DNA from: Candidatus Heimdallarchaeota archaeon
GTDB taxonomy: Archaea; Asgardarchaeota; Heimdallarchaeia; Heimdallarchaeales; Kariarchaeaceae
Length of the DNA: 32,000 nt
Assembly: GCA_030149205.1 (NCBI GenBank)
Contig: JASBSB010000006.1
Coordinates: forward strand, 60,001 to 92,000
Direction of reading: 5' to 3'
Below are positions 6,270 to 31,032 of the stretch, one piece after another; positions within the stretch are counted from its first letter, which is position 1, and each line of letters opens with the position of its first letter. Both the position numbers and the translations under genes were made by a program. The notes beneath the pieces are model-generated. The model was not told the origin of the DNA. It searched no databases and saw only the letters and a list, made by a program, of their open reading frames with translations.

Positions 6270-9200
6270 TTACAGATATTTTTTGTGGGGTTTAGCTCGC
6301 TTGATAATTTGAAAGACTGGTAGTAAAAACAAGGCAATCAAAATGCCCTCTGTACTAAATGGTATGAATCCACCCCCAGCTGGTTTACTTGAAGTAGATA
6401 TTAAAATTGTCACTTTTGCAGTCCCAAAATTTGTGGTGGTCTCTTTCACTGAATCATACACATTTATAGTAATAGAAACTTTTCCATTTACCACATCTGA
6501 CGAGCTTATATCAAGCTTTACTGAATTGATTCCGGACACTAGAGAGTGATCATTGAAAGTGAGGACATTTCCAACAAATAAATCATAATGATCAACCTTC
6601 ACATCATCTGTTGCGTTAAACTTAACTGTTAATGATAGTTTACCTGAACTATTCATTGTGAATGCTTGATTTGCTTTTGGTTCAAGTATGTTAACTACTG
6701 GTGGGGTTTTATCTAAAGAATACGATACCTTAGGACCCACACCAACCATTACAGCTTGTTGCTGCTTTACTACTGAATATGAGCTCAATAATTGAGTTTG
6801 ATCAACTCCGGGAGGAGTCAGCATATCTACCACATTTGGATCGTAGGGACCATCATCTCCTCCTCCAAGTTTCCAAGTTGATGCTGAGGTCATTCTTTCT
6901 CTAAAAGCAGAGAAATCTTGTGACCCAATTAAAACCACGTAAGCCCAATCTTGTGTTGGTGTTCCTACGATGTTAAGAGGGGCTTTAATTGTAATAGTCT
7001 TTTCTAAGGTATCTGCAATGGCAGAAACCCCAGCAAATGTCGTTTTGTTTTGATAGAGCCCGTATTGCTTAAACCCGTCAGCTCTTACCAAAGTTTCCCA
7101 GGCAAAATCAGGACTAATAAGTACATTTGGATTTTGGTCAGGTTTTGTATTTCCAGACCCGCTGATTCTATTTTTATCAATATAGATCTGAATCAAAGGA
7201 TGAGAAAATCCTGTAGGTGAATTCCAAGGATTTGTGATCTCAGAAAACTTTAATGACGCAACGAAATTATTTTTGTCATACCCGAGTTTGAAATCTAGAA
7301 TATCAAACAATCCATGTCCTGGAGCAAAATCTGGAGCTTTGGGATATGTCCCAAATTCATCTCCTGCTGGATCAGTGGTTGAGTATACAACATTAAAATT
7401 GACACCTGAAAAAGGAACTTGGAAAACAGCTGGCCCATCTTGAGGAGCTATATCTGTTTCAAAACCAGAATAAACTGCTCTGACTGAGAAAAATTCTCCA
7501 GGAGTATAATTGAAGAACTTTAGTGGAATTGACATTTCAAGAACAGAATTATAAGAAGCAAGTCCACCACTCACTACACTTTGTAGAACCCAATCACCGT
7601 TGACCACCTTCCAATAACGAAGGCTAGAATCATTAAACTGAAAGGTAACAGCATAGTTTAATTGAAATCCTAGGGTATTAGAGAAGTTAGTTTTATCTGC
7701 ACCTATAGGGAAAATTGCCCCTGACGAATCTTGAGGATTTTTGAAATAAAGACCCATAAAATCATTTGAAGAGCTACGAGCGCTTGATGACTCGAGGTCA
7801 AATTCATAAAGTAAGTTAGATGTGTTGCTATTTATCCCCGCACGCATATAGTTTATTGCCAGAAATTCAACGGAGGTATCATTTATGAAATATGCTCCAT
7901 CCCATTCTCCAGAAGCTTTAGTTCCATCGATAGAATACCCCGTCATTTTTGTTGGAAAACTGGAACTAATTGATGGTTTCTGTTCTAAAAATAGTAATGG
8001 GTTTATTGCTAATATTTGAGCATTCGTGTAGCCTATATTTACGTAAACATTTCTCAAGAATGATTTAAAGCCCCAATCAAAAACGTAGTCATGTCCAGAG
8101 TTTTGATCTGTTCCATACCACCAGAACCAATCTGAACCTTCAGCTTTGTAAATTGATTCCCATGCAGCGGTGGTGTTATAGGTTGGATTGGCTTTCTCAA
8201 AGTTGACTAAATCAGTCCTGGTTTGAATCAACCAATCCCAAGCGTTATTCTCCTCAGCTTCACCTATCCAAGTGTTCAGGTTTCCACTAATCCAAGAGCC
8301 TGATGCAAGTTTGTTGACCACAGGAAGATTTTTTGTACCAAATGTGTTGATAAATTGGGTTGGGGTTACAGTTTTTAACCATCCCTCTGTTTGGGCTTGT
8401 TCAAGTTTCGCGTAGAGATCATTTCTAAAGATGTTTCCTGTATACTCGTTTTTGCCATCTCCGTTAATATCATAACTGTAATGTTCCCATGCATTTTCTC
8501 CATCCAATGCAACAGTAATAATATAAGGTGTTGTCTTTGCAGGAGCCTTTTGTAATTCATTATAACGAGTTTTAAGCTCATTATAGAAATCTTGAGCTGC
8601 CTTTGCTGGATCCATTCCAGAGTAGGTGAATCCAATTTTATCTGAAAGTGCTGTATCTCGATAAAGGCTTGCAATCTCATATGATTTTGTACCATTTGTT
8701 GCTTTAACTTTGTACATCTGGTATTGTTGTTCTGGGGTTAATGAACTCAGTCCTAAACTATTTTGGAGGACGGTTTGGTCAGATACAAACCATTTAATAC
8801 CAGAAGCATTCATCAAAGGAACCACGTCGTTTGAAACTGCTTCCTCACTTGGCCACATACCAGTTGGTAATGTTCCAAACTTGGTTTTATAATATTGTAC
8901 TGCCTTGACAATTTGTGCGTTTGCATCTGAAACCCAGCCTGTATTTCCTTTGGGAAGGGGAAGGTTTCCATTTCCTGGTGAATCTCTTGCAGAAGTGAGA
9001 TTGATTAATAATGGTAGTATAGGATGGTAGAAGGGAGTTGTAATAATCTCGAGATTCCCCTGATTTTTTGCCAGATTATGTTTGGGTACAACAGATTTCA
9101 AAAGGTCTAATCCCTTCGTTAAAACATAGTCAAGATTACTATGAGAAAATCGACCGGTGCTATTACTAGTTTCAATATCATTGTTCAAAGTTGCGAGAGT

Positions 9201-9794
9201 GAAATCAGCCTTAATGTAATCTGGGTTAATCCATCTTAAGAAGAACATCACCTTTAAATCAAGGAGATCCCCATTCGTGAAATGAGCAATCTTCTCAGCC
9301 ATGGTAGGATATTTGTTTGCCTTTTCCTGAAGATAAGCATATCTTCCAGTTACAAACTGGGGGTTAATGTCGAAGAAAAATTGTAAAACAACAGATTTGT
9401 TTTCGGCACTCATTGCAGTCTCTTGCATTTTTGCAACCTGAATTCTTCTATCGTAAGCAACACCATTTGCGTAATCATCCATTTGAGAGAGAAGAGACGG
9501 TGTGAGGTTAATTGTTGCGTTCACCTTGGGATGATTTATCATTAGGTCTGCCATCCAGGGATATGAATTAGTAGAATGCATGTAGACCCAAGGTTGTTCA
9601 TATATCTTCGTTGTCGGATCCTGATAGTTCGGTTGGTGCTGATGCCAGATCAATGAAAAATAGACCGGTGTAACAGCTTGTTTACTGATCAGAATCGGTT
9701 CCGAAGTAGATCCTGCAATCGATCTATTCGTACTTGATGAGAACAAAAAAATCAGAATGAGGAATATTGGAATCAAATAATTTTTTACTTTCAT
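6270..9794 (-). CDS. apu: Cell-surface GH57 amylopullulanase with DOMON-like/glucodextranase-C domains, Ig-like domain and C-terminal membrane anchor
   Basis: Signal peptide MKVKNYLIPIFLILIFLF (ATG 9794; ORF track starts at TTG 9809). GH57 motifs WHQHQP, TPFYHPILPL, GMWPSE (nucleophile), ALDGENAWEHY (acid/base) and AEGSDWFWW. C-terminal DPAGD...FSHPLIQIYID...DPNVVDML domain and GGGFIP-TM-basic tail. Confidence 0.93.
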   Translation of the reverse strand: MKVKNYLIPIFLILIFLFSSSTNRSIAGSTSEPILISKQAVTPVYFSLIWHQHQPNYQDPTTKIYEQPWVYMHSTNSYPWMADLMINHPKVNATINLTPSLLSQMDDYANGVAYDRRIQVAKMQETAMSAENKSVVLQFFFDINPQFVTGRYAYLQEKANKYPTMAEKIAHFTNGDLLDLKVMFFLRWINPDYIKADFTLATLNNDIETSNSTGRFSHSNLDYVLTKGLDLLKSVVPKHNLAKNQGNLEIITTPFYHPILPLLINLTSARDSPGNGNLPLPKGNTGWVSDANAQIVKAVQYYKTKFGTLPTGMWPSEEAVSNDVVPLMNASGIKWFVSDQTVLQNSLGLSSLTPEQQYQMYKVKATNGTKSYEIASLYRDTALSDKIGFTYSGMDPAKAAQDFYNELKTRYNELQKAPAKTTPYIITVALDGENAWEHYSYDINGDGKNEYTGNIFRNDLYAKLEQAQTEGWLKTVTPTQFINTFGTKNLPVVNKLASGSWISGNLNTWIGEAEENNAWDWLIQTRTDLVNFEKANPTYNTTAAWESIYKAEGSDWFWWYGTDQNSGHDYVFDWGFKSFLRNVYVNIGYTNAQILAINPLLFLEQKPSISSSFPTKMTGYSIDGTKASGEWDGAYFINDTSVEFLAINYMRAGINSNTSNLLYEFDLESSSARSSSNDFMGLYFKNPQDSSGAIFPIGADKTNFSNTLGFQLNYAVTFQFNDSSLRYWKVVNGDWVLQSVVSGGLASYNSVLEMSIPLKFFNYTPGEFFSVRAVYSGFETDIAPQDGPAVFQVPFSGVNFNVVYSTTDPAGDEFGTYPKAPDFAPGHGLFDILDFKLGYDKNNFVASLKFSEITNPWNSPTGFSHPLIQIYIDKNRISGSGNTKPDQNPNVLISPDFAWETLVRADGFKQYGLYQNKTTFAGVSAIADTLEKTITIKAPLNIVGTPTQDWAYVVLIGSQDFSAFRERMTSASTWKLGGGDDGPYDPNVVDMLTPPGVDQTQLLSSYSVVKQQQAVMVGVGPKVSYSLDKTPPVVNILEPKANQAFTMNSSGKLSLTVKFNATDDVKVDHYDLFVGNVLTFNDHSLVSGINSVKLDISSSDVVNGKVSITINVYDSVKETTTNFGTAKVTILISTSSKPAGGGFIPFSTEGILIALFLLPVFQIIKRAKPHKKYL

Positions 9795-9944
9795 TTGGAA
9801 TTTCTCCAAGTATTAGACCCGATACAAATTGTGTAAATTTTAATCTTTAGGAATAACAATAATATTTTTGGATATTAGCACAACTATTTGTTTTTAAGAA
9901 ATTTAACAATTTGCGAAATTTTTCCATTAATTTTAGACACTATA

Positions 9945-9957
9945 TGACAATTTTCCA
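9945..9957. promoter_or_regulatory. Candidate sugar-regulon operator (TGGAAAATTGTCA on minus strand) upstream of apu
   Basis: One mismatch to TGRAAAWTTTYCA; recurs upstream of other alpha-glucan genes. Confidence 0.55.
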
Positions 9958-9977
9958 AAAATTTGTTAGATTCGCAA

Positions 9978-11348
9978 TTAATGAACAGAAAAATCATGGT
10001 TTTCAAGGCTAATACCTGATTTTTCATCAAATAGATGTGTTTGAGCACCAGAAAATCTGAAGTGGATTTCTGAACCAATTTTACGTGGTTTATGTCCAAT
10101 TTCACTTAATCTAACCTCTGAACCGAACAGATTGACAAAGATGATTGTAGAAGAGCCTATTGATTCAGTAAAGGTGACTGTACCTGTGATGGAATTAGAG
10201 TCTTTTATTGACAGGATTTCTACCTGTTCTGGACGAAATCCAATAATAACTTCGTTTCCAATGTGGTTTTCTAATAAATCTGGATTTGGATAATCGGATG
10301 GTATTTTGATGAAAGACCCCTCATTTACACGAATTAAAAGTTGTTTCCCTTGTTTGGTAAGTTCACCTTTAACAAGGTTTGTAGGAGGAGCACCAATAAA
10401 CCCAGCAACGAAGGCAGTTCGAGGTTTGTTATACACCTCGCTTGGTGTCCCTAGCTGTTCAATCACGCCTTTGTTCATAACTGCAATTCTATGCCCTAGG
10501 GTCATAGCTTCAACCTGATCATGGGTCACATAAAGTGTTGTTGTTTGTAACTTTGACTGTAATTCTGCTAATTCAGCTCTGGTTGAATTTCTTAACTTTG
10601 CATCAAGATTAGACAATGGTTCATCCATAAGAAATACCTTGGGGTCTCGAATTATGGCACGACCAACTGCAACCCTCTGTCTCTGACCTCCAGACAATTG
10701 CTTTGGCTTTCTATTTAACAGTTCTTCAATTTCCAATATTTCAGCAGTCTGTTTGACCCGTGTCTCAATCTCTTCAAGTTGGTTAATATAATCATGAATA
10801 CCAGGAATCCCAATCGAAAATTTTAACACAAAATACTCTATATTTTTTCTCAATTCAGGATAAACAATCCAAGCTATAACGAAGGATAATGTTATAGCTG
10901 AGAAGAAGACTACCCCAGGAGATCTTAAGATAAATGAATCTAAGATATAGCCAAACGCATAAAAAACCGAAAAGAGTAAAGTATAAGCCAAGAGTTTTAA
11001 CAAACTAACTATTACCTTTTGGGGGGTTGATAAGGTTAGATTCTTTAAACCGAAGGCTAAATTATCTCTGACTGTCATATGAGGATATAAGGCATATGAT
11101 TGAAACACCATTGCAATATCTCTGTCCTTAGGTGGTAATCTTGTGATATCATCGTCATCAACTGTGATTGTACCTGTGGTTGGTGTCTCTAGACCTGCTA
11201 ACATTCGGAGTGTTGTAGTTTTGCCACATCCTGAGGGCCCAACTAAGACCATGAATTCCTTATCAGTTATTTCTAAATTAAGATTTGACACTGCAGGTTT
11301 GTTGGTGCCAAACTGTTTTGTTATTTCATTAAATTTTACCTTTGCCAA
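9978..11348 (-). CDS. malK: Carbohydrate ABC transporter ATPase (MalK-like) with an inserted hydrophobic hairpin
   Basis: Walker A GPSGCGKT, Q-loop VFQSYALYPHM, signature LSGGQ, Walker B FLMDEPLSNLD, H-loop YVTHDQ and C-terminal TOBE region (GFRPE). TTG start preceded by SD AAGGTGA. About 85 extra residues at aa 104-188. Confidence 0.93.
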   Translation of the reverse strand: MAKVKFNEITKQFGTNKPAVSNLNLEITDKEFMVLVGPSGCGKTTTLRMLAGLETPTTGTITVDDDDITRLPPKDRDIAMVFQSYALYPHMTVRDNLAFGLKNLTLSTPQKVIVSLLKLLAYTLLFSVFYAFGYILDSFILRSPGVVFFSAITLSFVIAWIVYPELRKNIEYFVLKFSIGIPGIHDYINQLEEIETRVKQTAEILEIEELLNRKPKQLSGGQRQRVAVGRAIIRDPKVFLMDEPLSNLDAKLRNSTRAELAELQSKLQTTTLYVTHDQVEAMTLGHRIAVMNKGVIEQLGTPSEVYNKPRTAFVAGFIGAPPTNLVKGELTKQGKQLLIRVNEGSFIKIPSDYPNPDLLENHIGNEVIIGFRPEQVEILSIKDSNSITGTVTFTESIGSSTIIFVNLFGSEVRLSEIGHKPRKIGSEIHFRFSGAQTHLFDEKSGISLENHDFSVH

Positions 11349-11363
11349 AATAATTTCACCTTT

Positions 11364-12908
11364 TTATTTGATTCCACCACTGGTTATTCCTCCAGTTAAT
11401 AATCTCTGTAAACTCATAAATACAACCATGATTGGTAAGGCAGCTAATATACTAAAAGCGCTTAACAGTTGGAAGTAAGGAGGGTTATCAGGGGCGCTTG
11501 TGTTCTGATACAGATAGAACATTAATGGTAGAGAGGAAGATGGATTTTTCTCTCCAACAAAGATTTGAGCCAGAGCAAATTCGTTCCAAGCCCCTAAGAA
11601 TGTAAATATTGCAACTGCAACCATCCCAGGTGCTGAAAGTGGAATAGCAATTCTTAAAAACGCGCCTAGATCAGTTGAACCATCAATTAATGCAGCCTCT
11701 TCAAGGTCATAGGGTAAAGTATCAAAATATCCCTTCATCATCCATACATTATAGGCTAATGCGCCAACGAAATAAGCAAGTAGCAAGCCAGATAGTTTGA
11801 ATGTTCCCCCATCAATGTAGAACAGAGGAATAGAGAAGAGATAAATCTCTCGTCCTCCACCAAAAAAGCCGAGGTTTTTCCAAATAATAAACTGAGGAAT
11901 CAGCAGAATAATTCCAGGAAACATTTGAGTTGCAAGAACAAGAAATTTAGAAGTGTTTCTCCCTTTAAACTTGTATCTTGAAATTGCATAAGCAGCTGGA
12001 AGGGATATAAACATACCTCCGAGTGATGTCCCAAATCCTAAAACAAGTGAGATCATGAATGAGCTTGAAAATGAGGAGCTGTTGGGATTGATTATAAAAA
12101 TTACACTAGAATAATTTCTTACGAAGCTTCCCAATGGGTCACTTGGAACTATAGATTGTTTTTGAATGTCAACAGCATTACTCATTGAAAGGATTAATGT
12201 GTACACTATTGGCACCACGGTATAAATAAAAAATAAAATAAGGATCAAAAAAGTAAAAAGGCTGGTTAAAGAGAAGTTTAAATTTTGAAAGAGATTTTTC
12301 CTTGACTTATCTTGAATTTTTCCAACCTGATCTAATTTAAGATTTGACCTATACCTCTTTACCGACAAAACTGTCCCAATCATTGAAATGGAAAAAAGAA
12401 CCCATATATTGAGGTTTAATATTAGCTGAAAGAGTAGATCACGTTCAGAATAGGTAGCTGACATTGGTAGGGGAATACCCACAAACTGCCATGCGTGTGA
12501 ACTTAAGGAATTTAATTCATTCACCAGCCAGTTATTTGGAGTAATTTTATAAGATTCACCTGTCCAAAACGCAAGAAACCAGAGAAAATAACTAATGAGC
12601 ACCATGACCATAGATGGCTTTAACCCCTTACTATAATCCACCTTAAAATAGAAATAAAGAACGGAGATTGAAAAAATACCTCCCATAAGCGTCATTACAA
12701 TTAGATTACTGAGGATTTGGGGAACATATACATCAGTAGGATAATCTCCCCTTGGAAAGAGAGGAGGGGGTGAGGTCCACTGTCCTACAATATAAGTAAC
12801 TCGGTTCCATATCTTTAGCTGAAAATTCCAAAATGCCCACATGAACATCATTGCAGTAAATAAAATTGTTAAAAAGGAAAACAATTCCCCTTTGCTTCTA
12901 TCAGTCAT
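11364..12908 (-). CDS. malG: Carbohydrate ABC transporter permease MalG-like with about 200-aa N-terminal membrane extension
   Basis: AAYAISRYKFKGR, QMFP and EAA loop YFDTLPYDLEEAALIDG; start overlaps the malF stop (GAGGAGG SD, ATGACTGA). Confidence 0.9.
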   Translation of the reverse strand: MTDRSKGELFSFLTILFTAMMFMWAFWNFQLKIWNRVTYIVGQWTSPPPLFPRGDYPTDVYVPQILSNLIVMTLMGGIFSISVLYFYFKVDYSKGLKPSMVMVLISYFLWFLAFWTGESYKITPNNWLVNELNSLSSHAWQFVGIPLPMSATYSERDLLFQLILNLNIWVLFSISMIGTVLSVKRYRSNLKLDQVGKIQDKSRKNLFQNLNFSLTSLFTFLILILFFIYTVVPIVYTLILSMSNAVDIQKQSIVPSDPLGSFVRNYSSVIFIINPNSSSFSSSFMISLVLGFGTSLGGMFISLPAAYAISRYKFKGRNTSKFLVLATQMFPGIILLIPQFIIWKNLGFFGGGREIYLFSIPLFYIDGGTFKLSGLLLAYFVGALAYNVWMMKGYFDTLPYDLEEAALIDGSTDLGAFLRIAIPLSAPGMVAVAIFTFLGAWNEFALAQIFVGEKNPSSSLPLMFYLYQNTSAPDNPPYFQLLSAFSILAALPIMVVFMSLQRLLTGGITSGGIK

Positions 12909-14400
12909 TTAATTCCTCCTCAGGAAAAGTCATTTGGTATGCTTTAGAAAAAAGCACAAGTATAATAAACACCACGAAACTTAATGCAGCTCCTGCGGCA
13001 AATTCTGGGCCACTCCCTAGACCCTGTTGAATTAGATAATAAATATAAGTTATAAATATATCATACCCCTTCCTATTTCCAAGACCAGTTTGATTCTGAG
13101 AGAGAATGTAGAATACATTAAAAAGATTAAAAGTCCATATCATTCCCAATAAGGCAACTGTCCTTAATGTCGGGATTACATTTGGGAAGGTAATATTTCT
13201 AAATTCTCCCCAAGCTGAAGCCCCGTCAATTCTGGCGGCCTCATATAGATCCTGGGGGATTGATTGAAGAGCTGCTAGGAACGACATCATCATAAAAGGG
13301 ATTCCTAGCCAGATATTAGTAAGTATGGCGGCAAGAAAAATGGTTTTAGTTGAATAACCTAATAAGTAGAAGTCTGAGCTGAAAAAGAATTTAGTTTTAA
13401 TATTATAGACCTTCACAACATCTGCTCCAAAAAATGGCATGCCTTTCATTAATGCAGATTGATTGTTAAGTATGGACAGTACTGTCAGAACAATAACCAC
13501 TAACAAGATTAGCGCTTGTTGAACTTTCTTGTTGACAGATCTATTAGATTTGGTGAATACAATCCAACCTATCACCGAAACTGTCAATATTAACAATCCA
13601 GTATCCAAAAACGACAAACGAATTTCAGAACCTGGAACGAATGTCTGAGCGGCTATTCTTCCTAATATACCGTTATCTTGGTTAAAGATGAAATTTCTCC
13701 AAACAAGAGCTGTGATAAATGAAGGTATTGCCCAAGGAAGGATAAAAGTAGCTCTAAAAAAAGTGCGTCCCGTAAATTTCTGGTTTAATAGGACTGCAAG
13801 GAATATCCCAAACAGAACATGGAAAAAGGTGCAAATTGCAGACCAGAGGAATGTATTTAACAGGATTCTAAGGAAATCTCCTATGATGAAGGGACTTGTG
13901 AAGATATTCTTATAGTTCGCAATAGCTAATGTGGTATTACTACCTGATAGAATAATAAAATTTAATCCAAATATTATGAAATAACTCATGAAAGTCATAT
14001 TTAAGAAAATAGCAATCAAAAACCTGTTCAAAAACTTTAGATCTGATAAGATTGAAATACGCTTTAACTGCTTAGTTGTGGTAATAGTTGTGATACTAAG
14101 AGTAATAGCTAGAATTACTGGGAGGAACCCAGCTCCAATTAAACTTGATATAAAGGTAGATAAGTCTACCATGTAGAGATTGTTAAGATCCATAAAATAT
14201 CCTGTGAGGTTTTCAGAAATGGCTATAAGTCCTGGGTTCCTGTAAAAACTCAATAACAGTGCAAATAAGATGGGAATATACACAAACAGGAAAATCAATA
14301 AGAATGAAGGGAAAAGAAAGAGATATGACAATCTTACCCTTCGATCAATATAAAGTGAACTAACAACTCTAGGTGATTGTTCTTTTTCAGATACTGCCAT
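12901..14400 (-). CDS. malF: Carbohydrate ABC transporter permease MalF-like with extra TM segments
   Basis: ANY..IF, NTFLWS, GRTFFR..FILPWAIP, NIWLGIPFMM and EAA loop LQSIPQDLYEAARIDGA. Confidence 0.9.
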   Translation of the reverse strand: MAVSEKEQSPRVVSSLYIDRRVRLSYLFLFPSFLLIFLFVYIPILFALLLSFYRNPGLIAISENLTGYFMDLNNLYMVDLSTFISSLIGAGFLPVILAITLSITTITTTKQLKRISILSDLKFLNRFLIAIFLNMTFMSYFIIFGLNFIILSGSNTTLAIANYKNIFTSPFIIGDFLRILLNTFLWSAICTFFHVLFGIFLAVLLNQKFTGRTFFRATFILPWAIPSFITALVWRNFIFNQDNGILGRIAAQTFVPGSEIRLSFLDTGLLILTVSVIGWIVFTKSNRSVNKKVQQALILLVVIVLTVLSILNNQSALMKGMPFFGADVVKVYNIKTKFFFSSDFYLLGYSTKTIFLAAILTNIWLGIPFMMMSFLAALQSIPQDLYEAARIDGASAWGEFRNITFPNVIPTLRTVALLGMIWTFNLFNVFYILSQNQTGLGNRKGYDIFITYIYYLIQQGLGSGPEFAAGAALSFVVFIILVLFSKAYQMTFPEEELND

Positions 14401-14532
14401 ATTCTAACAGAAATCTTGAGTACTTATTTTAAGAATTCCCCTATTACTTTGCAATTTGGGATGTTTTTTGAATTAATAAATTTATTTCTTTTTCTGATAT
14501 ATGCCTAATATTTTAAACCTAGTCCTTTGACT

Positions 14533-17392: not shown

Positions 17393-17511
17393 TATACTCA
17401 CCTTCGTGTTAAAAAAACATCTAGACTCACTTAAAAAAGTAATCGTTCTTATAACTGTGACCTAGGTGTCTTTTTGGATAAATTTGTAAGTTCAAATTTA
17501 TTTGATAATTT

Positions 17512-17524
17512 TGGAAAATTTACA
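17512..17524. promoter_or_regulatory. Candidate sugar-regulon operator (TGGAAAATTTACA) upstream of the SBP/mal operon
   Basis: One mismatch to TGRAAAWTTTYCA; overlaps the glgP stop; about 57 nt upstream of TATA-like GTTATAAG (17455-17448). Confidence 0.5.
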
Positions 17525-20918: not shown

Positions 20919-20930
20919 AATTTGAATTTA
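20910..20930. repeat. Perfect inverted repeat TAAATTCAAA-A-TTTGAATTTA over the MFS start
   Basis: 10-bp arms with a 1-nt spacer, read directly from the sequence. Confidence 0.6.
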
Positions 20931-21071
20931 TTAACTTTTTGAATGTACCTTATATATCTACCAAGTTTTATTTTTTATCACGTATTATTGTAGCTTAACA
21001 CAGGTCCTGTAAGTTTAGATAAAAAATATGAATACTCTGTAGAATTATTTAGAATTTTACATTCTTTACAA

Positions 21072-23681: not shown

Positions 23682-23684
23682 ACA

Positions 23685-23700
23685 TTCGCTAAGTTGCGAA
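23685..23700. promoter_or_regulatory. Operator candidate TTCGC-TAAGTT-GCGAA between TATA box and MMPL start
   Basis: Inverted repeat with the same arms and spacing as 23814-23829. Confidence 0.7.
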
Positions 23701-23702
23701 AG

Positions 23703-23710
23703 TATATAAA
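23703..23710 (-). promoter_or_regulatory. TATA box of the MMPL gene
   Basis: TTTATATA on the minus strand, 22-29 nt upstream of ATG 23681. Confidence 0.6.
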
Positions 23711-23813
23711 GAGTAAGTTTTTGCACAGATATAAATATAAATATGCATAAACTTAACATTAACGAGTAGAAAAACTATATAATTAAATAATTATTCAAGA
23801 GAACAAATATATT

Positions 23814-23829
23814 TTCGCATTAATGCGAA
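23814..23829. promoter_or_regulatory. Operator candidate TTCGC-ATTAAT-GCGAA (perfect 16-bp palindrome)
   Basis: Perfect palindrome in the divergent MMPL/regulator intergenic region. Confidence 0.7.
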
Positions 23830-23853
23830 TTTAATTAATGCTAAACAAAAGTA

Positions 23854-23863
23854 TTTATATAAA
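23854..23863. promoter_or_regulatory. Palindromic TATA box TTTATATAAA upstream of the regulator
   Basis: 18-27 nt upstream of GTG 23881; A-rich BRE-like CAAAAG just upstream. Confidence 0.55.
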
Positions 23864-23880
23864 TGTAGGCTCGGTACTGT

Positions 23881-24846
23881 GTGATCAATAGATTACATCA
23901 TGATTCTCAGAGCAAAAATACAATTTCTGCATTTAGTGATGCATGGAAATCTCCATTTAAAGGACTTAAATTCCAGTTTTTAGAGTATGAAATATTGAAG
24001 CTAATCATGTATGGAGGCATAAATGAAGTAAGTGAAATAATTTCAATTGTTGAAGGTGAGTTTCAGGATATTAAAAAATCTAAATCACAATTGTATCGGA
24101 TCATTGAAAATTTAGAAACTGAAGGATTGATTTCATCAGAAAAATTGGGAAAGGAAAAAGTACTCAAGATAGAAAATAAAGGAATTCAAGAGTTAGGAAA
24201 TTTATCTAGGTATGTTTTGATTTCTTTGAGAGAAATCCTAATAGATGAAGGAATATGGAATGATATCTATGAAAAAGTTTTGCCTCAAACAGGGTGTCTA
24301 AGAGTAGATAACATTGCCTATTTAGGCCCACAAGCTCACGGTATTGTTCAATTACTTGACAGTTGTAGATATTGTGAATCTCCTAGATATCCCAACGATG
24401 ATTTACCAACCAGTCCAATATTCTTTCAATTACCTTATTCTGACACCACCCTGTCTCTAACAGAGAAAGATAAAATCACAATAATACAAAATCAAAAAAT
24501 CGACGACCTCATGTTGAAAACCAATAGTTTGGATATTGTTCTATCGTTTACCCTTATTTCCAAGTTTAAGGAACGTTCTTTTGAAGAGTTGAAGAGAATT
24601 GTTAAGCCAGAAGGCTTTTTAATATTTGTTGAACCTGTTAAAACAACACCACATGTTGTAATTATGATGTATAATCAGATTCTTATGGCGAATTCATTTG
24701 AGACCTCAGAATTTTGGAGGATAGACACCTTAGATAATACCCTTCCTTCAGTAGAGGAGCTTGAAAACCTATTAATGAATGAATTTACGAAGGTTACAAA
24801 GATAAAAGATTCCTTGTTATCTATTTTTGTCTGTCAAATCACCTAA
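23881..24846 (+). CDS. Winged-helix (PadR/MarR-like) transcriptional regulator fused to a methyltransferase-fold domain
   Basis: EYEILKLI...SKSQLYRIIENLETEGLISSEK...LKIENKG (wHTH). C-terminal NSLDIVLSF...FEELKRIVKPEGFLIFVEP matches class I MTase motifs; glycine-rich motif I is degenerate. Confidence 0.7.
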   Translation: MINRLHHDSQSKNTISAFSDAWKSPFKGLKFQFLEYEILKLIMYGGINEVSEIISIVEGEFQDIKKSKSQLYRIIENLETEGLISSEKLGKEKVLKIENKGIQELGNLSRYVLISLREILIDEGIWNDIYEKVLPQTGCLRVDNIAYLGPQAHGIVQLLDSCRYCESPRYPNDDLPTSPIFFQLPYSDTTLSLTEKDKITIIQNQKIDDLMLKTNSLDIVLSFTLISKFKERSFEELKRIVKPEGFLIFVEPVKTTPHVVIMMYNQILMANSFETSEFWRIDTLDNTLPSVEELENLLMNEFTKVTKIKDSLLSIFVCQIT

Positions 24847-25553
24847 GGTGAGACTGATCTTAAATAATCTATAAAGCCAATCATATCTGAATTTTTCCAA
24901 TCTAAACCATTATAGATCTTTTGAATACTACCTGCTTGGTCTACTACATACACGAGAAATTGATGTGCCCAGAGGCGATGAGTCATATGTGACATGTTTC
25001 CACCATGATTAGGGGTATACTCTGAAGGAATAGTGCCAGCTGTTTTTGTGGTGGTGGTAGTCTGATTGATTGGAAAGAAAACAAAGTTCCAATCCTTAGT
25101 GATTTTATCAATCTGAGTATGATTTCCAAGTAATACATGAAAGTTACTCGGCAAGTTCAATGTCCCCATTGTCTGATTTACATAATTTCGAACAGTTGTC
25201 AGATTATCATAATAATCGAAATCAATCTCAAAAAATGTTAAATCATTTACCTTAGATTTTTTTTGTAAATCAGTGTATACGTTATTAAGCTTGGTTGTAA
25301 TGACTGAACACCCATCAGGACAACTTGCATAAAAAAATGTGACAAGTCGAATAGTTCCATTACTGGAAGCAAAGTTGACAGGTTTGTTATTGATATCCTG
25401 GAGTGTGAAATCCTTAGGCTTCCACAGAAACTGTCTTGGGTCATTGGCTTTTGTAACATCTGCCCATAAGAAACCAGCAGCAACTATCCCCCCTAGAATG
25501 ATTAAACCAATAATTGTACCTTTCACCTTAGGGTTTTCAATTGAAAGACTCAT
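24843..25553 (-). CDS. SCO1/SenC family copper chaperone
   Basis: N-terminal TM anchor, FTLQDINNKPV, FFYASCPDGC (CxxxC), HQFLVYVVD (conserved His); stop overlaps the regulator stop by 4 nt. Confidence 0.88.
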   Translation of the reverse strand: MSLSIENPKVKGTIIGLIILGGIVAAGFLWADVTKANDPRQFLWKPKDFTLQDINNKPVNFASSNGTIRLVTFFYASCPDGCSVITTKLNNVYTDLQKKSKVNDLTFFEIDFDYYDNLTTVRNYVNQTMGTLNLPSNFHVLLGNHTQIDKITKDWNFVFFPINQTTTTTKTAGTIPSEYTPNHGGNMSHMTHRLWAHQFLVYVVDQAGSIQKIYNGLDWKNSDMIGFIDYLRSVSP

Positions 25554-25713
25554 TAAATGAAAGCAGCAAATTTGCTTTAAAAATATTTAGCTTTTATCGA
25601 CACTAAATTATTGTTAAAAAAAAAATAAGTATACAAGCAATATATCAAAAATTAATACTGTTGTTAATTGATATGTCAATAATAGATTAAAAAAATTAGC
25701 TTTTTTAACTATT

Positions 25714-26742
25714 TCATGGTTCATTTTTCCATAAAAAGTCAACTAATTCAGCAGTTCTGCTTGCATACCCCCACTCATTATCATACCATGCTAGCACCTT
25801 TAGAAGAGTGTTTTCAACCAACATCATACTAGGAAAATCAATAATTGCACTGTGTGGGTTTGTATTGAAATCCACAGAAACAAGAGACCTCCATTCATAG
25901 TCTAAGATACCTTTCATGTAACCATGTGCTGCATCTTCAAACACTTTCTGAACATGATCTTTAGACTCAGCATCCTTTTTCAGTCTGACTGTTAAATCAA
26001 CAAGTGAGACATTAGGAGTGGGTACTCTAATTGAGATTCCATCCATTTTACCCTCTAAGTGAGGCATTATCACACCTATTGTTTTCGCAGCCCCTGTTGT
26101 TGTTGGGACTATTGACATAGCTGCAGATCGGGATCTTCTGAAGTCTTTGTGCTGAGAATCAAGCAACCGCTGATCATTGGTATAAGAATGAACTGTGCTC
26201 ATAGTGCCATGTTCAATTCCAAATTCATCATCCAAGACCTTACATACTGTAGCCAGACAGTTTGTGGTGCATGATGCGTTGGAAATTAAATAATGTTGTT
26301 TAGGATCATAGATTTGCTGATTTACACCAAGAACTATCGTTGCATCCACACCTTTTCCAGGAGCAGATAGCACTACTCGTTTCGCACCAGCTTCTAAGTG
26401 TTTACTCATCAACTCTCGAGTCCTAAAAAACCCTGTTGACTCAATAACATAATCTACTTCCATCTCCTTCCAAGGAAGTTTACTTGGGTCTTTTTCAGAT
26501 AAAACTGTAAATTCATCACCATCAAAAATCAGGTTATTAGTCTCATTGTGAACTTCAACAGAACCATTAAACCTACCATGTACACTATCAAACTCAAACA
26601 GATGTGCAAGCATGTCTGGTGAACTCAGATCATTGATAGCTACAATGTTTACCGGGAGCTTGTGTTCTAAAAACGCTCGTGTAACCAATCTCCCTATTCT
26701 GCCAAACCCGTTTATTGCGACATTAGGTATATCTCGTGCCAT
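25714..26742 (-). CDS. gap: Class I (bacterial/eukaryote-type) glyceraldehyde-3-phosphate dehydrogenase
   Basis: VAINGFGRIGR, AINDL, SNASCTTNCLA (catalytic Cys), HSYTNDQ, PTTTGAAK, RVPTPNVS and WYDNEWGY. Confidence 0.96.
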   Translation of the reverse strand: MARDIPNVAINGFGRIGRLVTRAFLEHKLPVNIVAINDLSSPDMLAHLFEFDSVHGRFNGSVEVHNETNNLIFDGDEFTVLSEKDPSKLPWKEMEVDYVIESTGFFRTRELMSKHLEAGAKRVVLSAPGKGVDATIVLGVNQQIYDPKQHYLISNASCTTNCLATVCKVLDDEFGIEHGTMSTVHSYTNDQRLLDSQHKDFRRSRSAAMSIVPTTTGAAKTIGVIMPHLEGKMDGISIRVPTPNVSLVDLTVRLKKDAESKDHVQKVFEDAAHGYMKGILDYEWRSLVSVDFNTNPHSAIIDFPSMMLVENTLLKVLAWYDNEWGYASRTAELVDFLWKNEP

Positions 26743-26839
26743 ACTGAGAATACAAATGCTTATGGATATAAAAGTTCTAAGCTACCCACTATTTTGAAAA
26801 TTAAAAAAGATTAAATACAATTATACTAAATGCTGAAAT

Positions 26840-26852
26840 TGAAAAATTGTCA
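26840..26852. promoter_or_regulatory. Candidate sugar-regulon operator (TGAAAAATTGTCA) upstream of gap
   Basis: One mismatch to consensus; TATA-like TTTTATAT at 26773-26766. Confidence 0.55.
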
Positions 26853-26879
26853 ATTAATTATTTATTTTTTATACTAAAT

Positions 26880-29543
26880 TTACACAAATTTTTTCTTTTT
26901 GAGGGTGATTACAAGACCAATTACAACAAAAGCACCTAATACAGGTACAATGTCCACAGGAATAAATCCACCACCAGAACTTGATGAAGTTGCACTCGTG
27001 GGTGTAGATGTGGGTGTCGCTTTGGCCGTGATAACAACCTTGAATGTCTGTGAGACAAAGTTTCCACTCGCATCAAAGAGGTTTGCTTTCAAATCATGCG
27101 TACCAACACCTAAGGAAATATTAAAGTTGACAAACACATGATAACCTACAACTTTCTGAGTACCGAGGAGAAGATTACCGTCGAACAACTCAACTTTGGC
27201 AAGTCCAGAAAGAGAACCTTGTGCATCATCATGAAGCAACGCATCAACTCTGAAATCTACCGTTGATGTACTTGTTGCAACCTCAAAAGAAGCCCCATTA
27301 GTCACAAGTTTACCTGCGTTTGTGACATTGAACGACAAGAATTTTGGTGCGGTAGTATCCTTGATGAACTTTTCGCCTGATCCAACAGGTAATACAGATG
27401 CTACTTTAGAGTTAGCAAGGTCATACCTTGATAAGGTATCATTCTGTAGAGTAGCTGGTGAGCCAACTGGAACTAACATGTCAACCACATTGGGGTCAAT
27501 TGGTCCGTCAACTCCACCACCAAGCTGCCAATCAGCACCCCATTTTGCACCTGCAGACCTAAATTTGTTGAAATCATCACTTCCAGAGAAGAGATAATAT
27601 TTCCAGGTGTTATTTGGTTGTCCACCAAGCATTTTGGTTGGAATTACAATTGAGGCCACATTTGTTGTGGTATTGCCAGATGCTTGAATTCCTGATCCCG
27701 CAAAAGGAGCTGACAGATCTGAGGATTTGAAATATTGGTTCACAAAACCATCTGATTTTAATGCATAATTCCATTGTGTTGAGGTCTGAACAGCCTCATT
27801 CCACAGAGTAGATGTAGCACCACCTGGTCCATTGTCAACATAAACGGAAAAGATAACAACTGAGAATCCTAATGAAGAACTAAAACCATTGGTCAGGTTA
27901 GCAAACGTAACCCTGAATTCGGTGTTATATTGATTAGAAAGAACTTCAAAGTTCAATATATCAATTACACCAGGTGCAAATGGTGGATTGTTTTTCGGTA
28001 TCCTCAGTGATAGATCACCCTTGGGATCAGAAATGTTATATTGAAGATTTCTGGGGGGTTCGATTCCAACTAACAGGGTGAAATTACCCTGAGTAATCAT
28101 TGAGGTTTTTTGACCTGTTTTATTGAAACCATAAGTTGTGACGTAATATGTGATATTTCCGGTGTAGTAAGGACCAATTGAAACTTCATAGTTGTTGTTT
28201 AGATTCTTATAACTGAGCCATGACATATTCTTTGACATAAAAGTACCAGTGTTGTTTCCTCTCCAGTAAATAGTGGTTCTTACAGGAACATTTGCTGCAG
28301 GATCTGCATTAATGCTAGTACCATCAGCAAATTTAAGGTTATTCTGTGCCTGAATGGTGACGGTTTTGTTTGGTGCAACGAAACCACCGGTGGGGGAGAT
28401 CCCACCTAAATAGGTCACATTGAAAGGTGGTAGGGGAGCCACATAAAAGCTCCCTGAAACGGTACCTACACTAATGTCAGTTGCATTGTTCAATCCTTTT
28501 GCCCACCAGAACACATGGTCACCATCTTGGAACTGAGTCGCATCGATTTTTACAACCTGTTTATCTGAACCTAAACCAACTCTTGAGCCAAACTCCTTAT
28601 ACGCATACGTTTTATATGAGGTGTTTACCCCAGTTCTTTCAACTTTGTAATCGAATTGAACTAATGCGCTACTATTAGCATTGTCATTAACGGTTGGTTG
28701 ACTGCTGTTCCCAGGAGAATGAAACCATGTGTTGAAACTCATGATTAGTGGATTTCCTGCCGTTAGATTACCACCTGCTAAGTTATCTGTCTCATGAGAT
28801 AGATACCCTATCTGTGGTGTTGGAGCTAATGCTGGTGAACTAATTGATGTAACTGAGATGTTAAGATATGTCTTAAGTGTCATAAATTCTGATGTTGTTG
28901 CGGCTGGAACACCTGCTTGACTTGGGACTGAATCATACACATTTGATCCGTCTCCACCTGAAGTGAGGACCAATAACCCTATTGTCGCGCTTGATGGTAC
29001 AGTTGCGTATAATAATGACCAATCAAACCTGTATGTTTTGATTTGGGATGTGCCATCATATTTCCATCCATAACCTGCGAGAGGTGTGGTACTGGTTGCG
29101 ATAGTTGCCCCAGATGAATCATAGAGGTCACCATAGCCTTGTTCCCATCCAGCAGCCCAATATTCTGCTCCAAAGTTACTAGGTAGCTTCACTGGTCTTA
29201 TCCAGTGTGCTCCAGTACTTAAATCAGAATATCCTATACCTGTACCAGGGTTTGTATCAATAAATACTAAGTCACCACCAGTAAATACATCTCCACTTAC
29301 CCTAATGACAAGTGATGATGTATTAACGGTTACATTTACAAATTTAATTTCTTGCTGTGGAAATGCTGCGTCATTTGGTGCATCAGGAATGATATATGAT
29401 GCGCTTGCTGCAGCTGCTTTTGGACTAACTGTACTGTTTGATGCTGGTGTTGCCAACGGCAAACCTGCTAACGCAGTGGGAGTTGATCCAAAAACTAATA
29501 CCAGAAACAAGAAAACTGATAAGCTAACCAATTTTATCTTCAT
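26880..29543 (-). CDS. Cell-surface multidomain glucan-binding protein (DOMON-like/glucodextranase-C and Ig-like modules), no catalytic domain recognised
   Basis: Signal peptide. The aa ~500-887 region is homologous to the apu C-terminus (DPKGD..IDILNF..GFS..IFSVYVD; LGGGVDGPIDPNVVDML; GGGFIP-TM-KKKK). No GH57, GH13 or GH15 motifs seen. Confidence 0.72.
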   Translation of the reverse strand: MKIKLVSLSVFLFLVLVFGSTPTALAGLPLATPASNSTVSPKAAAASASYIIPDAPNDAAFPQQEIKFVNVTVNTSSLVIRVSGDVFTGGDLVFIDTNPGTGIGYSDLSTGAHWIRPVKLPSNFGAEYWAAGWEQGYGDLYDSSGATIATSTTPLAGYGWKYDGTSQIKTYRFDWSLLYATVPSSATIGLLVLTSGGDGSNVYDSVPSQAGVPAATTSEFMTLKTYLNISVTSISSPALAPTPQIGYLSHETDNLAGGNLTAGNPLIMSFNTWFHSPGNSSQPTVNDNANSSALVQFDYKVERTGVNTSYKTYAYKEFGSRVGLGSDKQVVKIDATQFQDGDHVFWWAKGLNNATDISVGTVSGSFYVAPLPPFNVTYLGGISPTGGFVAPNKTVTIQAQNNLKFADGTSINADPAANVPVRTTIYWRGNNTGTFMSKNMSWLSYKNLNNNYEVSIGPYYTGNITYYVTTYGFNKTGQKTSMITQGNFTLLVGIEPPRNLQYNISDPKGDLSLRIPKNNPPFAPGVIDILNFEVLSNQYNTEFRVTFANLTNGFSSSLGFSVVIFSVYVDNGPGGATSTLWNEAVQTSTQWNYALKSDGFVNQYFKSSDLSAPFAGSGIQASGNTTTNVASIVIPTKMLGGQPNNTWKYYLFSGSDDFNKFRSAGAKWGADWQLGGGVDGPIDPNVVDMLVPVGSPATLQNDTLSRYDLANSKVASVLPVGSGEKFIKDTTAPKFLSFNVTNAGKLVTNGASFEVATSTSTVDFRVDALLHDDAQGSLSGLAKVELFDGNLLLGTQKVVGYHVFVNFNISLGVGTHDLKANLFDASGNFVSQTFKVVITAKATPTSTPTSATSSSSGGGFIPVDIVPVLGAFVVIGLVITLKKKKFV

Positions 29544-29705
29544 TATAATTTCCTCTAATTATTTTGGTTATTCTTGGGGTAGGAAAGGGTTATATATAAG
29601 TTAGCTCATTTCTATAATGATAAATACAACCTTTTGGATTTTTTTTGAGATCATTGTAATTTTTGAGATAAAATTTAATCATTTTCTAAATTTTGAAATT
29701 TTACC

Positions 29706-29718
29706 TGAAAAATATTCA
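29706..29718. promoter_or_regulatory. Candidate sugar-regulon operator (TGAAAAATATTCA) upstream of the 887-aa surface protein
   Basis: One mismatch to consensus; overlaps the stop codon of the kinase gene. Confidence 0.5.
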
Positions 29719-31032
29719 TTTTTTTGAGAAATTTTCCAATAATTTGGAATGATAAAGTATAGATATTATTAAAGTATCAATAAGAAAATATCTCTGTTGA
29801 TTAGCTGTCATACGTATTTTTTCCAACTTTACTCCTCGATTTAGAAACAGCTCAAAAGTCTCTTCAAGACTTATACCAGATAAATCAAGCGAATTTTCCC
29901 AGTGTTTGATCGCATAATGAAGTTCTTTTAATGAACGGAGAATAAGAAATCTGTAGAATAAATGCTTCTGAGAAATACTTAGTTCAAATAGATCACGTAG
30001 TTTTACATGGATTTCTTTTGCCTTTGATAATAAAAGGTTTTCAAAATGCAAGAAATAGTTAATCTGATTTATGATTCCTGAATAATGACTAGCAAAGTCA
30101 TATAGGGGGGACCCAATTAATACATCCTCTATATCCATAATCTCTAATTTATCCATAGTTAGAATGAGTTGCCGCCACCAGAGATCCCCATGGATTGGTT
30201 GCTCAAGATCTGTCATGAGATTTGAAAAGTCAACTACCTCTTCGAGATGAGAAAAATTTAATTCTAGTCCAACTTTTTTAATTTGCTCATTGAATTTCGC
30301 CACCCATCTGGAAAGGTATTCTTTAACATTGAACAGTGCGGTCTTTGCCTCATCAGTAAGTTTTGAAAGATGTAGCCCCTCAATTATGATTGAACCTAAT
30401 GCTATATGAAATCTTGATATCAAATTGATAGATCTAGCTGTAAATTCTACAAAATCATCCTTAAATTTTGGATTTTGTGAGCTTATGTAGTCCCTTAGCA
30501 ATGAACCTGTGTAAGTATCAGCATTCTCCTGTTCTGAGATTTCTTCAAAAAGAGCAAAGATGGTATGGGTTCTTCCCTCAACTTGAATTTGCAAAGAGGT
30601 ATAGAGTTTTGGAAACATACCAAATTCGCAAAGTTTTGAAGAAAAAGTGACTTCATTGGATCCAATGAACATTCGAGTGTAAATCTTCATATGATACCTG
30701 GTTCCATCAACCCCAATTAACAAAAAATGTTGATTTGTAGCATCGATATTCAACCTCTCTATACTCTTACACATTATCCCAACTGATTCTAATGCTGTAT
30801 TTACTAATCCAAGAACATCTGTCACAAAACTAAGTGACTCACCTTTTCTTTCTAACCAAATAAAAGCTGAAGTAAAATCATCGTGGACCTTATACAGCCC
30901 ACCCACTTTTTTATTGGAATTTGTACTAACTGGTATGAAGTCAGTTATTTTTATACGGTGTTTGTCCAACCCATAATTTCTTCTGAGAATTTCCTGAGAA
31001 AGGTTAGAAATATCTAGCTTGTTTAGACTCAC
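29716..31032 (-). CDS. Maltokinase-like (Mak/Pep2) kinase, aminoglycoside-phosphotransferase fold
   Basis: YHMKIY (ATP lysine), FHIALG, QPIHGDLWWRQL (compare Mak IHGDLHLGQVL), IMDIE (DFE-like) and SPLYDFA; sugar-gene context; GTG start. Confidence 0.62.
   Translation of the reverse strand: MSLNKLDISNLSQEILRRNYGLDKHRIKITDFIPVSTNSNKKVGGLYKVHDDFTSAFIWLERKGESLSFVTDVLGLVNTALESVGIMCKSIERLNIDATNQHFLLIGVDGTRYHMKIYTRMFIGSNEVTFSSKLCEFGMFPKLYTSLQIQVEGRTHTIFALFEEISEQENADTYTGSLLRDYISSQNPKFKDDFVEFTARSINLISRFHIALGSIIIEGLHLSKLTDEAKTALFNVKEYLSRWVAKFNEQIKKVGLELNFSHLEEVVDFSNLMTDLEQPIHGDLWWRQLILTMDKLEIMDIEDVLIGSPLYDFASHYSGIINQINYFLHFENLLLSKAKEIHVKLRDLFELSISQKHLFYRFLILRSLKELHYAIKHWENSLDLSGISLEETFELFLNRGVKLEKIRMTANQQRYFLIDTLIISILYHSKLLENFSKK

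Follow-up and report, generated by a model that had tools for sequence, protein, structure and literature searches.

Maltodextrin catabolism in Escherichia coli proceeds via the transferase MalQ, the phosphorylase MalP, and the kinase Glk. In the Thermococcales, the cytoplasmic route, attributed to Xavier et al. in 1999, reportedly combines a 4-alpha-glucanotransferase with a maltodextrin phosphorylase. The Thermococcales mal/mdx clusters (P. furiosus, T. litoralis, and T. kodakarensis) include an amylopullulanase gene (PMC2246101), a precedent that an earlier reading of the DNA studied here (the first-pass annotation) had invoked for the core of the system, and rightly so. The system in question is an alpha-glucan utilization locus of a Candidatus Heimdallarchaeota archaeon, which lies in a stretch of 32,000 nucleotides (the window; contig JASBSB010000006.1, G000:C2:60001-92000). 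We consider it likely, from gene content and gene order, that these genes represent one conserved Heimdallarchaeial locus for the use of extracellular alpha-1,4/1,6-glucans (starch, glycogen, pullulan, and maltodextrins), which in this genome has been rearranged into three pieces.

Like the Thermococcales clusters, the Heimdall locus encodes a GH57 surface enzyme together with a CUT1-type solute-binding protein (SBP), two BPD_transp_1 permeases, and a MalK with an OB/TOBE domain, as well as a cytoplasmic GH57 4-alpha-glucanotransferase (GTase) and a maltodextrin phosphorylase. This core (surface enzyme, transporter, transferase, and phosphorylase) is the known Thermococcales arrangement, and the basic picture of a familiar archaeal amylopullulanase plus maltodextrin transporter is unchanged. 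Unlike those clusters, the Heimdall locus has two anchored SBPs, a conserved non-catalytic surface protein (GBP, named for a predicted glucan-binding role), and a transmembrane (TM) hairpin in MalK; furthermore, its transporter genes are accompanied in the cluster by those for the phosphorylase, the transferase, a maltokinase (Mak)-like kinase (Kin), and a GAPDH of bacterial type. The Heimdall cluster also differs in having no TrmB-family gene (such genes are present elsewhere in the genome) and no TGM box above chance (TATCAC-N5-GTGATA; three matches in the window at two mismatches, against 1.7 expected, and none in promoters). New features are a conserved place for GBP in the cluster, the hairpin in MalK, a small kinase family resembling Mak and glucosamine kinase (GlcNK), and the type I GAPDH. 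No description of this locus in Asgard archaea was found in the literature. The host is probably not a hyperthermophile (window 33-39% G+C; likely source a sediment metagenome).

The genome (G000; 3.3 Mb, 12 contigs, 93.5% complete) was compared with two members of the same genus (G001 and G003), two genomes from a second family of the order (G018 and G014), and one from a third family of the class (G053). Genes of the window were mapped using a six-frame listing of open reading frames (ORFs) and Pfam/NCBIfam scans, and orthologous regions of the relatives by BLASTP against the window proteins. The genes named in the first-pass annotation were all recovered on the minus strand at the positions given below, and the probable Asgard origin that it proposed is borne out: the genome belongs to the Heimdall group, and the same cluster occurs on contigs deposited as Candidatus Heimdallarchaeota archaeon, both from the genus and from another family.

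2-379, plus strand: C-terminal end (last 125 codons) of the cytoplasmic GH57 4-alpha-glucanotransferase/alpha-amylase (GTase); whole gene G000:C2:58271-60379
6270-9809, minus strand: GH57 amylopullulanase-like enzyme, surface-anchored, 1179 aa (Pfam)
9978-11348, minus strand: MalK-type ABC ATPase with OB/TOBE regulatory domain (Pfam, NCBIfam)
11364-12908, minus strand: MalG permease (BPD_transp_1, hydropathy)
12901-14400, minus strand: MalF permease (BPD_transp_1, hydropathy)
14533-16014, minus strand: SBP1, solute-binding protein (SBP_bac_1, SBP_bac_8)
16007-17401, minus strand: SBP2, divergent solute-binding protein (no Pfam match; PDB relatives)
17520-19505, minus strand: alpha-glucan (maltodextrin) phosphorylase, cytoplasmic (TIGR02094, 709 bits)
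25714-26742, minus strand: type I (bacterial-type) phosphorylating GAPDH (TIGR01534, 416 bits, above cut-off)
26880-29543, minus strand: GBP, non-catalytic anchored surface protein, 887 aa, putatively glucan-binding (only Pfam domain Glucodextran_C)
29716-31032, minus strand: Kin, APH-fold sugar kinase, 438 aa (fold match; no Pfam or NCBIfam match)

The same genes lie together in the relatives, in orders that differ between lineages. In G001 (two adjoining contigs), GAPDH is followed on the opposite strand by SBP1 and SBP2, and then by the phosphorylase, GH57 enzyme, GTase, Kin, GBP, MalF, MalG, and MalK; the GBP gene spans the contig junction, and the last three genes are on the adjoining contig. 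Contig C46 of G003 has the gene order of G001 and ends after Kin, with MalG-MalK on a separate contig (C112). The order in G018 and G014 is MMPL, GAPDH, an esterase-CBM48 protein, GBP, Kin, GTase, and GH57 enzyme, with SBP2, SBP1, and MalF running divergently from the GH57 gene. G053 encodes a GH57 enzyme and then, divergently, an SBP2-like protein, SBP1, MalF, MalG, a MalK with hairpin, GBP, and a further GH57 enzyme. The SBP1-SBP2 pair is kept in all relatives compared, in three families GBP has either the GH57 enzyme or the transporter as a neighbour, GAPDH is in the cluster in G001, G003, G018, and G014, and GTase adjoins Kin in G001, G003, and G018. The relatives' GTase (~700 aa; Pfam domains Glyco_hydro_57, AmyA-A_glucT_m, and AmyA-gluTrfs_C) has an orthologue in G000 with the same three domains and 47% identity to the cluster gene (tblastn). 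GTase therefore belongs to the cluster, and since it ends at 2-379, the system reaches past 6270-31032. In G000 the cluster is broken into three pieces (C2:58271-60379 and window positions 6270-19505 and 25714-31032) within ~33 kb. Repeated reshuffling without dispersal is a firmer sign of functional linkage than static synteny would be. The proposed tie between the 25714-31032 piece (block 2) and the 6270-19505 piece (block 1) gains support accordingly: these genes form an unbroken run in two congeners and, reshuffled, in another family.

It is very improbable that blocks 1 and 2 are neighbours by chance and functionally unrelated. GAPDH is a housekeeping enzyme, and in G000 four unrelated genes part the blocks (MFS, MMPL, PadR-methyltransferase on the plus strand, and SCO1), but the contiguity of the same genes, in differing orders, in G001, G003, G018, and G014 contradicts this explanation. 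Several observations nevertheless weigh against the single-locus reading, or against particular parts of it that are taken up below. The unrelated genes between the pieces exclude co-transcription in G000. A GBP query was unmatched in G002 and in three genera of the family (g2-g4), with weak C-terminal matches only in g5 and g6; of the 83 genomes surveyed in the class, those with Kin all fall in genera g1 and g9. Synteny across Heimdallarchaeia thus stands in part, in that the genes are kept together in three families, albeit with a patchy distribution.

The order Kin, GBP, GAPDH, ..., MMPL, ..., MFS is common to G000 (19584-23759) and G018 (L014:2568-8127). Because G018 is from another family, the exporters are conserved neighbours rather than a recent insertion. 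A contig joint at 18817-25765 (DNA run X4), which would skip the MFS-SCO1 insert, was rejected as spurious, having 31 letters on one side and cutting both genes. No RNA run was listed for this stretch, and the four DNA runs compared yielded just the probable source contig plus short pieces of close relatives at low depth. G000 also encodes, at C8:99925-101328, a homologue (42% identity) of the G018/G014 esterase plus CBM48-like protein, which ends in a TM anchor and basic tail.

A pathway can be proposed from these gene assignments, with substrates and direction of flux as predicted. The anchored GH57 amylopullulanase-like enzyme would cut the polymer at the cell surface, where GBP probably holds glucan or organises the GH57 enzyme at the envelope. 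Maltooligosaccharides would be captured by the two anchored SBPs and imported via MalFG, powered by a MalK that is tied to the membrane through its inserted helical hairpin. In the cytoplasm, oligosaccharides would be disproportionated by the GH57 4-alpha-glucanotransferase, glucose-1-phosphate would be made by the phosphorylase, and Kin would phosphorylate the freed glucose (preferred) or maltose. The clustered bacterial-type GAPDH may then serve the catabolic direction of glycolysis. The first-pass description of a system complete to glycolysis was overstated: GAPDH is the sole glycolytic gene in the window, phosphoglucomutase (PGM) is on another contig, and GTase lies outside 6270-31032.

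Two further systems bear comparison. As in the E. coli MalQ/MalP/Glk triad, the locus combines a transferase and a phosphorylase with a putative kinase for freed glucose, and this triad recurs around Kin homologues; unlike in E. coli, the transferase is GH57 rather than GH77, and the kinase is of the APH fold rather than Glk/ROK. The joint encoding of a surface amylase, a non-catalytic surface protein, and a transporter resembles in concept the Sus/polysaccharide utilization loci of Bacteroides and the amylosome of Ruminococcus bromii. In those terms the earlier label of a Sus/amylosome-like system overreached, and is to be read as functional analogy, not homology: an outer membrane is lacking, the anchor is a C-terminal TM helix, no SusC/SusD Pfam domains were found in the ORFs scanned (window and relatives' clusters), and no cohesin or dockerin was found by Pfam in the scanned ORFs, which included the GH57 enzyme, GBP, and the SBPs.

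The GH57 enzyme (PF03065 at E 3e-49) comprises a signal peptide, the GH57 domain, Glucodextran_C, a Big_7 immunoglobulin (Ig) domain, a serine/threonine (S/T) linker, the motif GGGFIP, a TM helix, and a basic tail, with TM segments at residues 6-26 and 1145-1169. The translation contains HQHQP, WPSEE, DGEN, and AEGSDWFWW, which we take to be GH57 conserved regions that include the catalytic nucleophile Glu and acid/base Asp. The combination of GH57 with Glucodextran_C has >6000 homologues and occurs very commonly among Asgard archaea and Chloroflexota; database names of the homologues are merely GH57 or 'glucodextranase DOMON-like'. The enzyme is predicted to be amylopullulanase-like, cleaving both alpha-1,4 and alpha-1,6 bonds. 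Two more anchored extracellular GH13 enzymes are encoded outside the locus, at G000:C1:262695-265046 (797 aa) and G000:C8:582252-584528 (759 aa).

SBP1 and SBP2 both begin with a signal peptide and end in a TM anchor. The closest solved relatives of SBP1 in the PDB bind maltose, maltodextrin, acarbose, or trehalose; SBP2 belongs to this group too, though it has diverged strongly, with the acarbose/maltose-binding protein GacH as its best PDB match (E 1.6e-4). MalG and MalF are each ~500 aa, with extra N-terminal TM helices, and their genes overlap by 8 nt. In MalK, Pfam/NCBIfam matches fall into two stretches (3-111 and 191-446), parted by an insertion of ~85 aa (residues ~105-190) between the Q-loop and LSGGQ that contains two hydrophobic segments spanning 111-166. 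An insertion of the same character is found at the same site in G001, G003, and G053 (31-45% identity), where the gene directly follows MalG each time. The membrane-tethered ATPase of the first-pass annotation is thereby upheld, as a two-helix hydrophobic insertion conserved in at least two families of the class. A limited literature search found no description of a MalK with such a hairpin, and word-based protein searches with the insertion, a method insensitive for divergent segments, returned almost nothing past near relatives. A membrane-tethered MalK would be an apparently undescribed design among the ATPases of type I ABC importers.

Against the Thermococcales maltodextrin phosphorylase model, the phosphorylase scores 610 bits, which is below the cut-off. 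Besides the clustered type I GAPDH, a second, divergent, type II-like GAPDH is encoded at G000:C4:700609-701595 (129 bits, below the 185-bit NF003251 cut-off). Other archaea possess separate catabolic and anabolic GAP enzymes; by analogy, there may be a division of labour in which the clustered enzyme serves catabolism.

GBP begins with a signal peptide and a CBM9/Glucodextran_C-like domain (~43-239), followed by Ig-like beta-sandwiches, Glucodextran_C (504-717), and an Ig-like domain, after which come an S/T linker, GGGFIP, a TM helix, and a K-rich tail. An AF2 (AlphaFold2) model of residues 28-505 is all-beta. The first domain matches the glucodextranase of Arthrobacter in its C-terminal region (1ulv; Z 12.3, rmsd 3.6, 167 residues) and also a family 9 carbohydrate-binding module (CBM; 1i82; Z 10.1), both by VIA-align; the remaining domains are generic Ig/FN3-like sandwiches. 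The match to Sas6 (7uwu) was discarded, as its Z of 12.1 is accompanied by an rmsd of 14.4, hence no real superposition. Word-based searches with the GBP N-terminus, likewise insensitive for divergent segments, gave almost nothing past near relatives. On this modelling, GBP is predicted to carry two CBM9/Glucodextran_C-like modules and no catalytic domain, and its persistent association with the locus in three families favours a role in the pathway.

The nature of that role is less certain, as the AF2 model has only moderate confidence (pLDDT 69) and Pfam describes Glucodextran_C (PF09985) as an SLH-like binding module, so that GBP may bind the envelope and not glucan. It would then be an envelope- or S-layer-associated scaffold or spacer, travelling with the GH57 enzyme only by virtue of their paralogous C-terminal halves. 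We regard this as unlikely, albeit with some evidence in its favour: the C-terminal 390 residues of GBP are 33% identical to the C-terminal part of the GH57 enzyme, starch-specific families (CBM20, 21, 48, and similar) were not detected in GBP by Pfam, and Foldseek on the multi-domain model returned only generic Ig arrays, including an S-layer protein. The scaffold explanation is opposed by the resemblance of the N-terminal domain to CBM9-type carbohydrate binders, and by the fact that, in three families, GBP has stayed beside the glucan genes despite several rearrangements; a GBP that holds glucan or organises the GH57 enzyme at the envelope remains the preferred interpretation.

Kin belongs to a small archaeal family, with 16 relatives among 1.84 billion representatives (HMMER). 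Searches against PDB sequences (phmmer and profile) gave only sub-threshold APH and methylthioribose-kinase matches. The best Foldseek matches of the AF2 model (pLDDT 84) are a glucosamine kinase (6hwl) and the maltokinases 5jy7, 4o7o, and 4u94 (E 7e-11 to 1e-9; TM-score ~0.5-0.57 over the whole length), with 10-15% identity to Mak/GlcNK structures in structural alignments. In a language-model atlas, the features of Kin lead to clusters with APH or Mak_N_cap on 15-41% of their members (Mak_N_cap 15-34%). The earlier term 'maltokinase-like' therefore holds at the level of fold.

An alignment of 19 members shows K116, E127, H281, D283, W285, R287, Q288, D300, E302, and D303 to be invariant, and R366, E370, and Y373 to be nearly so. 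The Mg ligands of Mak are Gln310 and Asp322 (PMC11046441), and Q288 and D300 of Kin have the same 12-residue spacing. Sugar contacts in Mak and GlcNK involve a catalytic-loop D-x-H and an E-x2-Y pair on a C-lobe helix (PMC6520443); E370-x2-Y373 of Kin matches the sugar-binding E409/Y412 of SjGlcNK (PMC6520443). Kin is thus like Mak/Pep2 and SjGlcNK in its overall fold, including the N-terminal cap, and in its catalytic Asp, and shares with Mak and SjGlcNK a Gln for the APH Asn, a D-x-E/D metal loop 12 residues on, and the E-x2-Y motif. It is unlike them in the lack of sequence-level PDB or Pfam matches, the invariant WR before the Gln, and a D-x-W in place of D-x-H. By eye, the GlcNK signature Q-x2-RE-x2-YA-x3-LP-x-W corresponds to R366-x2-KE-x2-YA-x3-W in Kin, with E, Y, and A kept and the Q, the LP, and the W spacing changed.

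The gene contexts of remote Kin homologues comprise phosphorylase, GH57 transferase, and kinase; GH57 branching enzyme, kinase, NTP transferase, PGM, and phosphorylase; kinase-NTP transferase; and kinase-PGM. The SjGlcNK gene has PGM and UDP-glucose pyrophosphorylase genes as neighbours (PMC6520443). One remote homologue, in L067 (JBHLKR010000491.1), lies beside genes for a polysaccharide deacetylase and a member of the aldehyde:ferredoxin oxidoreductase family (possibly GAPOR-type).

As to the acceptor, the maltose-phosphorylating step of the first-pass annotation was weakened. No GlgE N/S domain (PF11896) was found in G000, which at 93.5% completeness leaves the absence unproven, and its four GH13 genes are all amylase or neopullulanase types, with neither GlgE nor TreS among them; Kin thus has no TreS or GlgE partner, unlike the maltokinase of the GlgE pathway (TreS-Mak-GlgE). 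The catalytic loop, furthermore, has an invariant D283-x-W285 where Mak/GlcNK have the sugar-contacting His. A search of the same 93.5% complete genome found no ADP-dependent glucokinase (ADP-GK), ROK, Glk, hexokinase, or BadF-type kinase. Because neither GlgE, TreS, nor a known glucokinase family was found, a glucose kinase is favoured over a maltose-1-phosphate step and is at least as likely: there is about an even chance that Kin acts on glucose released by GTase, giving either its 6- or its 1-phosphate, and formation of maltose-1-phosphate by Kin is doubtful.

Were Kin a true maltokinase, GTase-made maltose would pass via maltose-1-phosphate to an intracellular glycogen-like glucan, so that the locus would serve storage as much as catabolism. 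The fold matches to Mak (4u94, 4o7o, 5jy7) equal those to glucosamine kinase, the atlas clusters include 15-34% Mak_N_cap, Kin adjoins the GH57 transferase in several lineages, and a remote homologue lies beside a GH57 branching enzyme; a MalQ plus Pep2 route to maltose-1-phosphate is documented (PMC11046441), as in the MalQ-Mak route of Pseudomonas aeruginosa. Absent GlgE, however, maltose-1-phosphate has no known sink, and it is toxic on accumulation in mycobacteria (PMC11046441); the D-x-H His replaced by Trp in Kin contacts maltose in MtMak (PMC6520443). Together with the lack of a GlgE N/S domain and of GlgE/TreS-type GH13 genes in G000, this makes the storage route improbable, and phosphorylation of glucose by Kin the preferred assignment.

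The argument that Kin supplies a missing glucokinase is itself not clean. Among the 83 genomes of the class, the ADP-dependent glucokinase/phosphofructokinase family is present in f2, f7, and two of three f4 genomes, and was not found in 12 genomes of f1 (the family of G000) or in 22 of f5. Kin is confined to two genera, and one Kin-bearing genome, G014, has an ADP-GK-family match as well. A complementary distribution of Kin and ADP-GK was considered and rejected, there being no clean pattern across the 83 genomes.

Taken jointly, the parts could amount to a hitherto undescribed alpha-glucan system of the Heimdallarchaeia's own, with three parts for which no studied counterpart exists (the Kin clade as the 'missing' glucose kinase, a MalK permanently tethered by a hairpin inserted in its helical subdomain, and a GBP that captures glucan for the anchored GH57 enzyme) and with a recruited catabolic GAPDH; as a whole this is put forward only tentatively. 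If true, lineages with no kinase of the ADP-GK, ROK, Glk, or hexokinase type would be served by the Kin clade. Among known archaea, Heimdallarchaeia are the nearest relatives of eukaryotes, and their diet bears on models of eukaryote origin. The locus provides conserved genomic evidence that some Heimdallarchaeia may scavenge alpha-glucan polymers at the cell surface, feeding glycolysis through a bacterial-type GAPDH. No glucokinase was found in Thorarchaeia, for which unidentified archaeal sugar kinases have been invoked (2018 preprint, 10.1101/385732); Kin is a candidate for this sugar-kinase step left open by Asgard genome surveys.

The first-pass annotation had linked the two blocks by a shared upstream motif and a shared C-terminal cassette. 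The motif sites (no strand assigned) are as follows.

9945-9957: near-palindromic 13-mer of the TGRAAAWTTTYCA family, upstream of the GH57 gene
17512-17524: TGRAAAWTTTYCA-family copy, upstream of SBP2
19538-19550: TGRAAAWTTTYCA-family copy, upstream of the phosphorylase gene
26840-26852: TGRAAAWTTTYCA-family copy, upstream of GAPDH
29706-29718: TGRAAAWTTTYCA-family copy, upstream of GBP
31050-31062: weaker copy, related consensus TGAAAAATTGTCA with one mismatch, upstream of Kin

With at most one mismatch allowed, the window contains five copies of TGRAAAWTTTYCA where 1.5 are expected, a count attained in 2 of 100 shuffles, and each copy is upstream of a cluster gene, although the pattern was built from these sites and the statistics are post hoc. 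Genome-wide there are 41 intergenic matches in 430 kb of intergenic DNA, nine of which represent a repeat found where contigs end. The anchored GH13 gene at C1:262695-265046 has one site 44 nt before its start, and another is in the upstream region of a further GH13 gene. These data favour TGRAAAWTTTYCA as a real shared element in G000. Its role as an operator of this system is less well favoured: perfect copies also precede unrelated genes, the G003 cluster has two promoter-position sites, that of G001 has one inside malG and none upstream, and the motif is absent from the cluster contigs of G018 and G014. Co-regulation of the pieces is thus a prediction from a post hoc motif. What stands of the shared motif is the enrichment of five sites, all before cluster genes; conservation in relatives is poor. 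TGAAAAATTGTCA at up to two mismatches was rejected as the shared motif, with seven sites against 4.8 expected and none in the relatives' clusters; by a rough estimate, chance alone would give a 12/13 match between some two of eight AT-rich promoters. In the four relatives searched, TGRAAAWTTTYCA (at most one mismatch) is 3- to 8-fold commoner than a reversed control (180 against 22 in G003), and it may consequently be a widespread element and not a glucan-specific operator.

The cassette is real, but is not a specific link between the blocks. The GH57 enzyme, SBP1, SBP2, and GBP each have a signal-peptide-like start and end in a hydrophobic helix with a basic tail; an S/T linker and GGGFIP precede this on the GH57 enzyme and GBP. 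The TM plus basic-tail anchor is generic in G000, where 86 of 2583 long ORFs pass a simple filter that admits some false positives. A six-frame search of the genome yields exactly three GGGF[IV]P motifs, each ~30 residues before the stop: in the GH57 enzyme, in GBP, and in an S8 subtilase. The subtilase (G000:C7:283327-287832; L062:4825-9321, minus strand) is 1498 aa, with a CARDB domain and the same GGGFIP-TM-basic tail. A third copy on a protease marks the motif as a sorting or anchoring signal, not a hallmark of the glucan system, and the endings suggest a distinct class of C-terminal sorting signal. Archaeosortase-processed signals of the PGF-CTERM type are tripartite (motif, TM helix, basic tail) and go with an archaeosortase gene; a tripartite GGGFIP-TM-K/R tail is seen on the three proteins above. 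Haloferax volcanii presumably has ArtA. The archaeosortase profile PF09721 had no match in G000, and none in the H. volcanii control either, so that the search was insensitive.

Near many G000 contig ends, at a distance of at most a few hundred bases, an identical 13-mer, TGAAAATCTTTCA, is found again and again (sites C1:270989, C2:3747, C2:668885, C3:5336, C4:995429, C5:77, C7:77, C7:473476, and C10:11834), which suggests a repeated element at which the assembly is interrupted.

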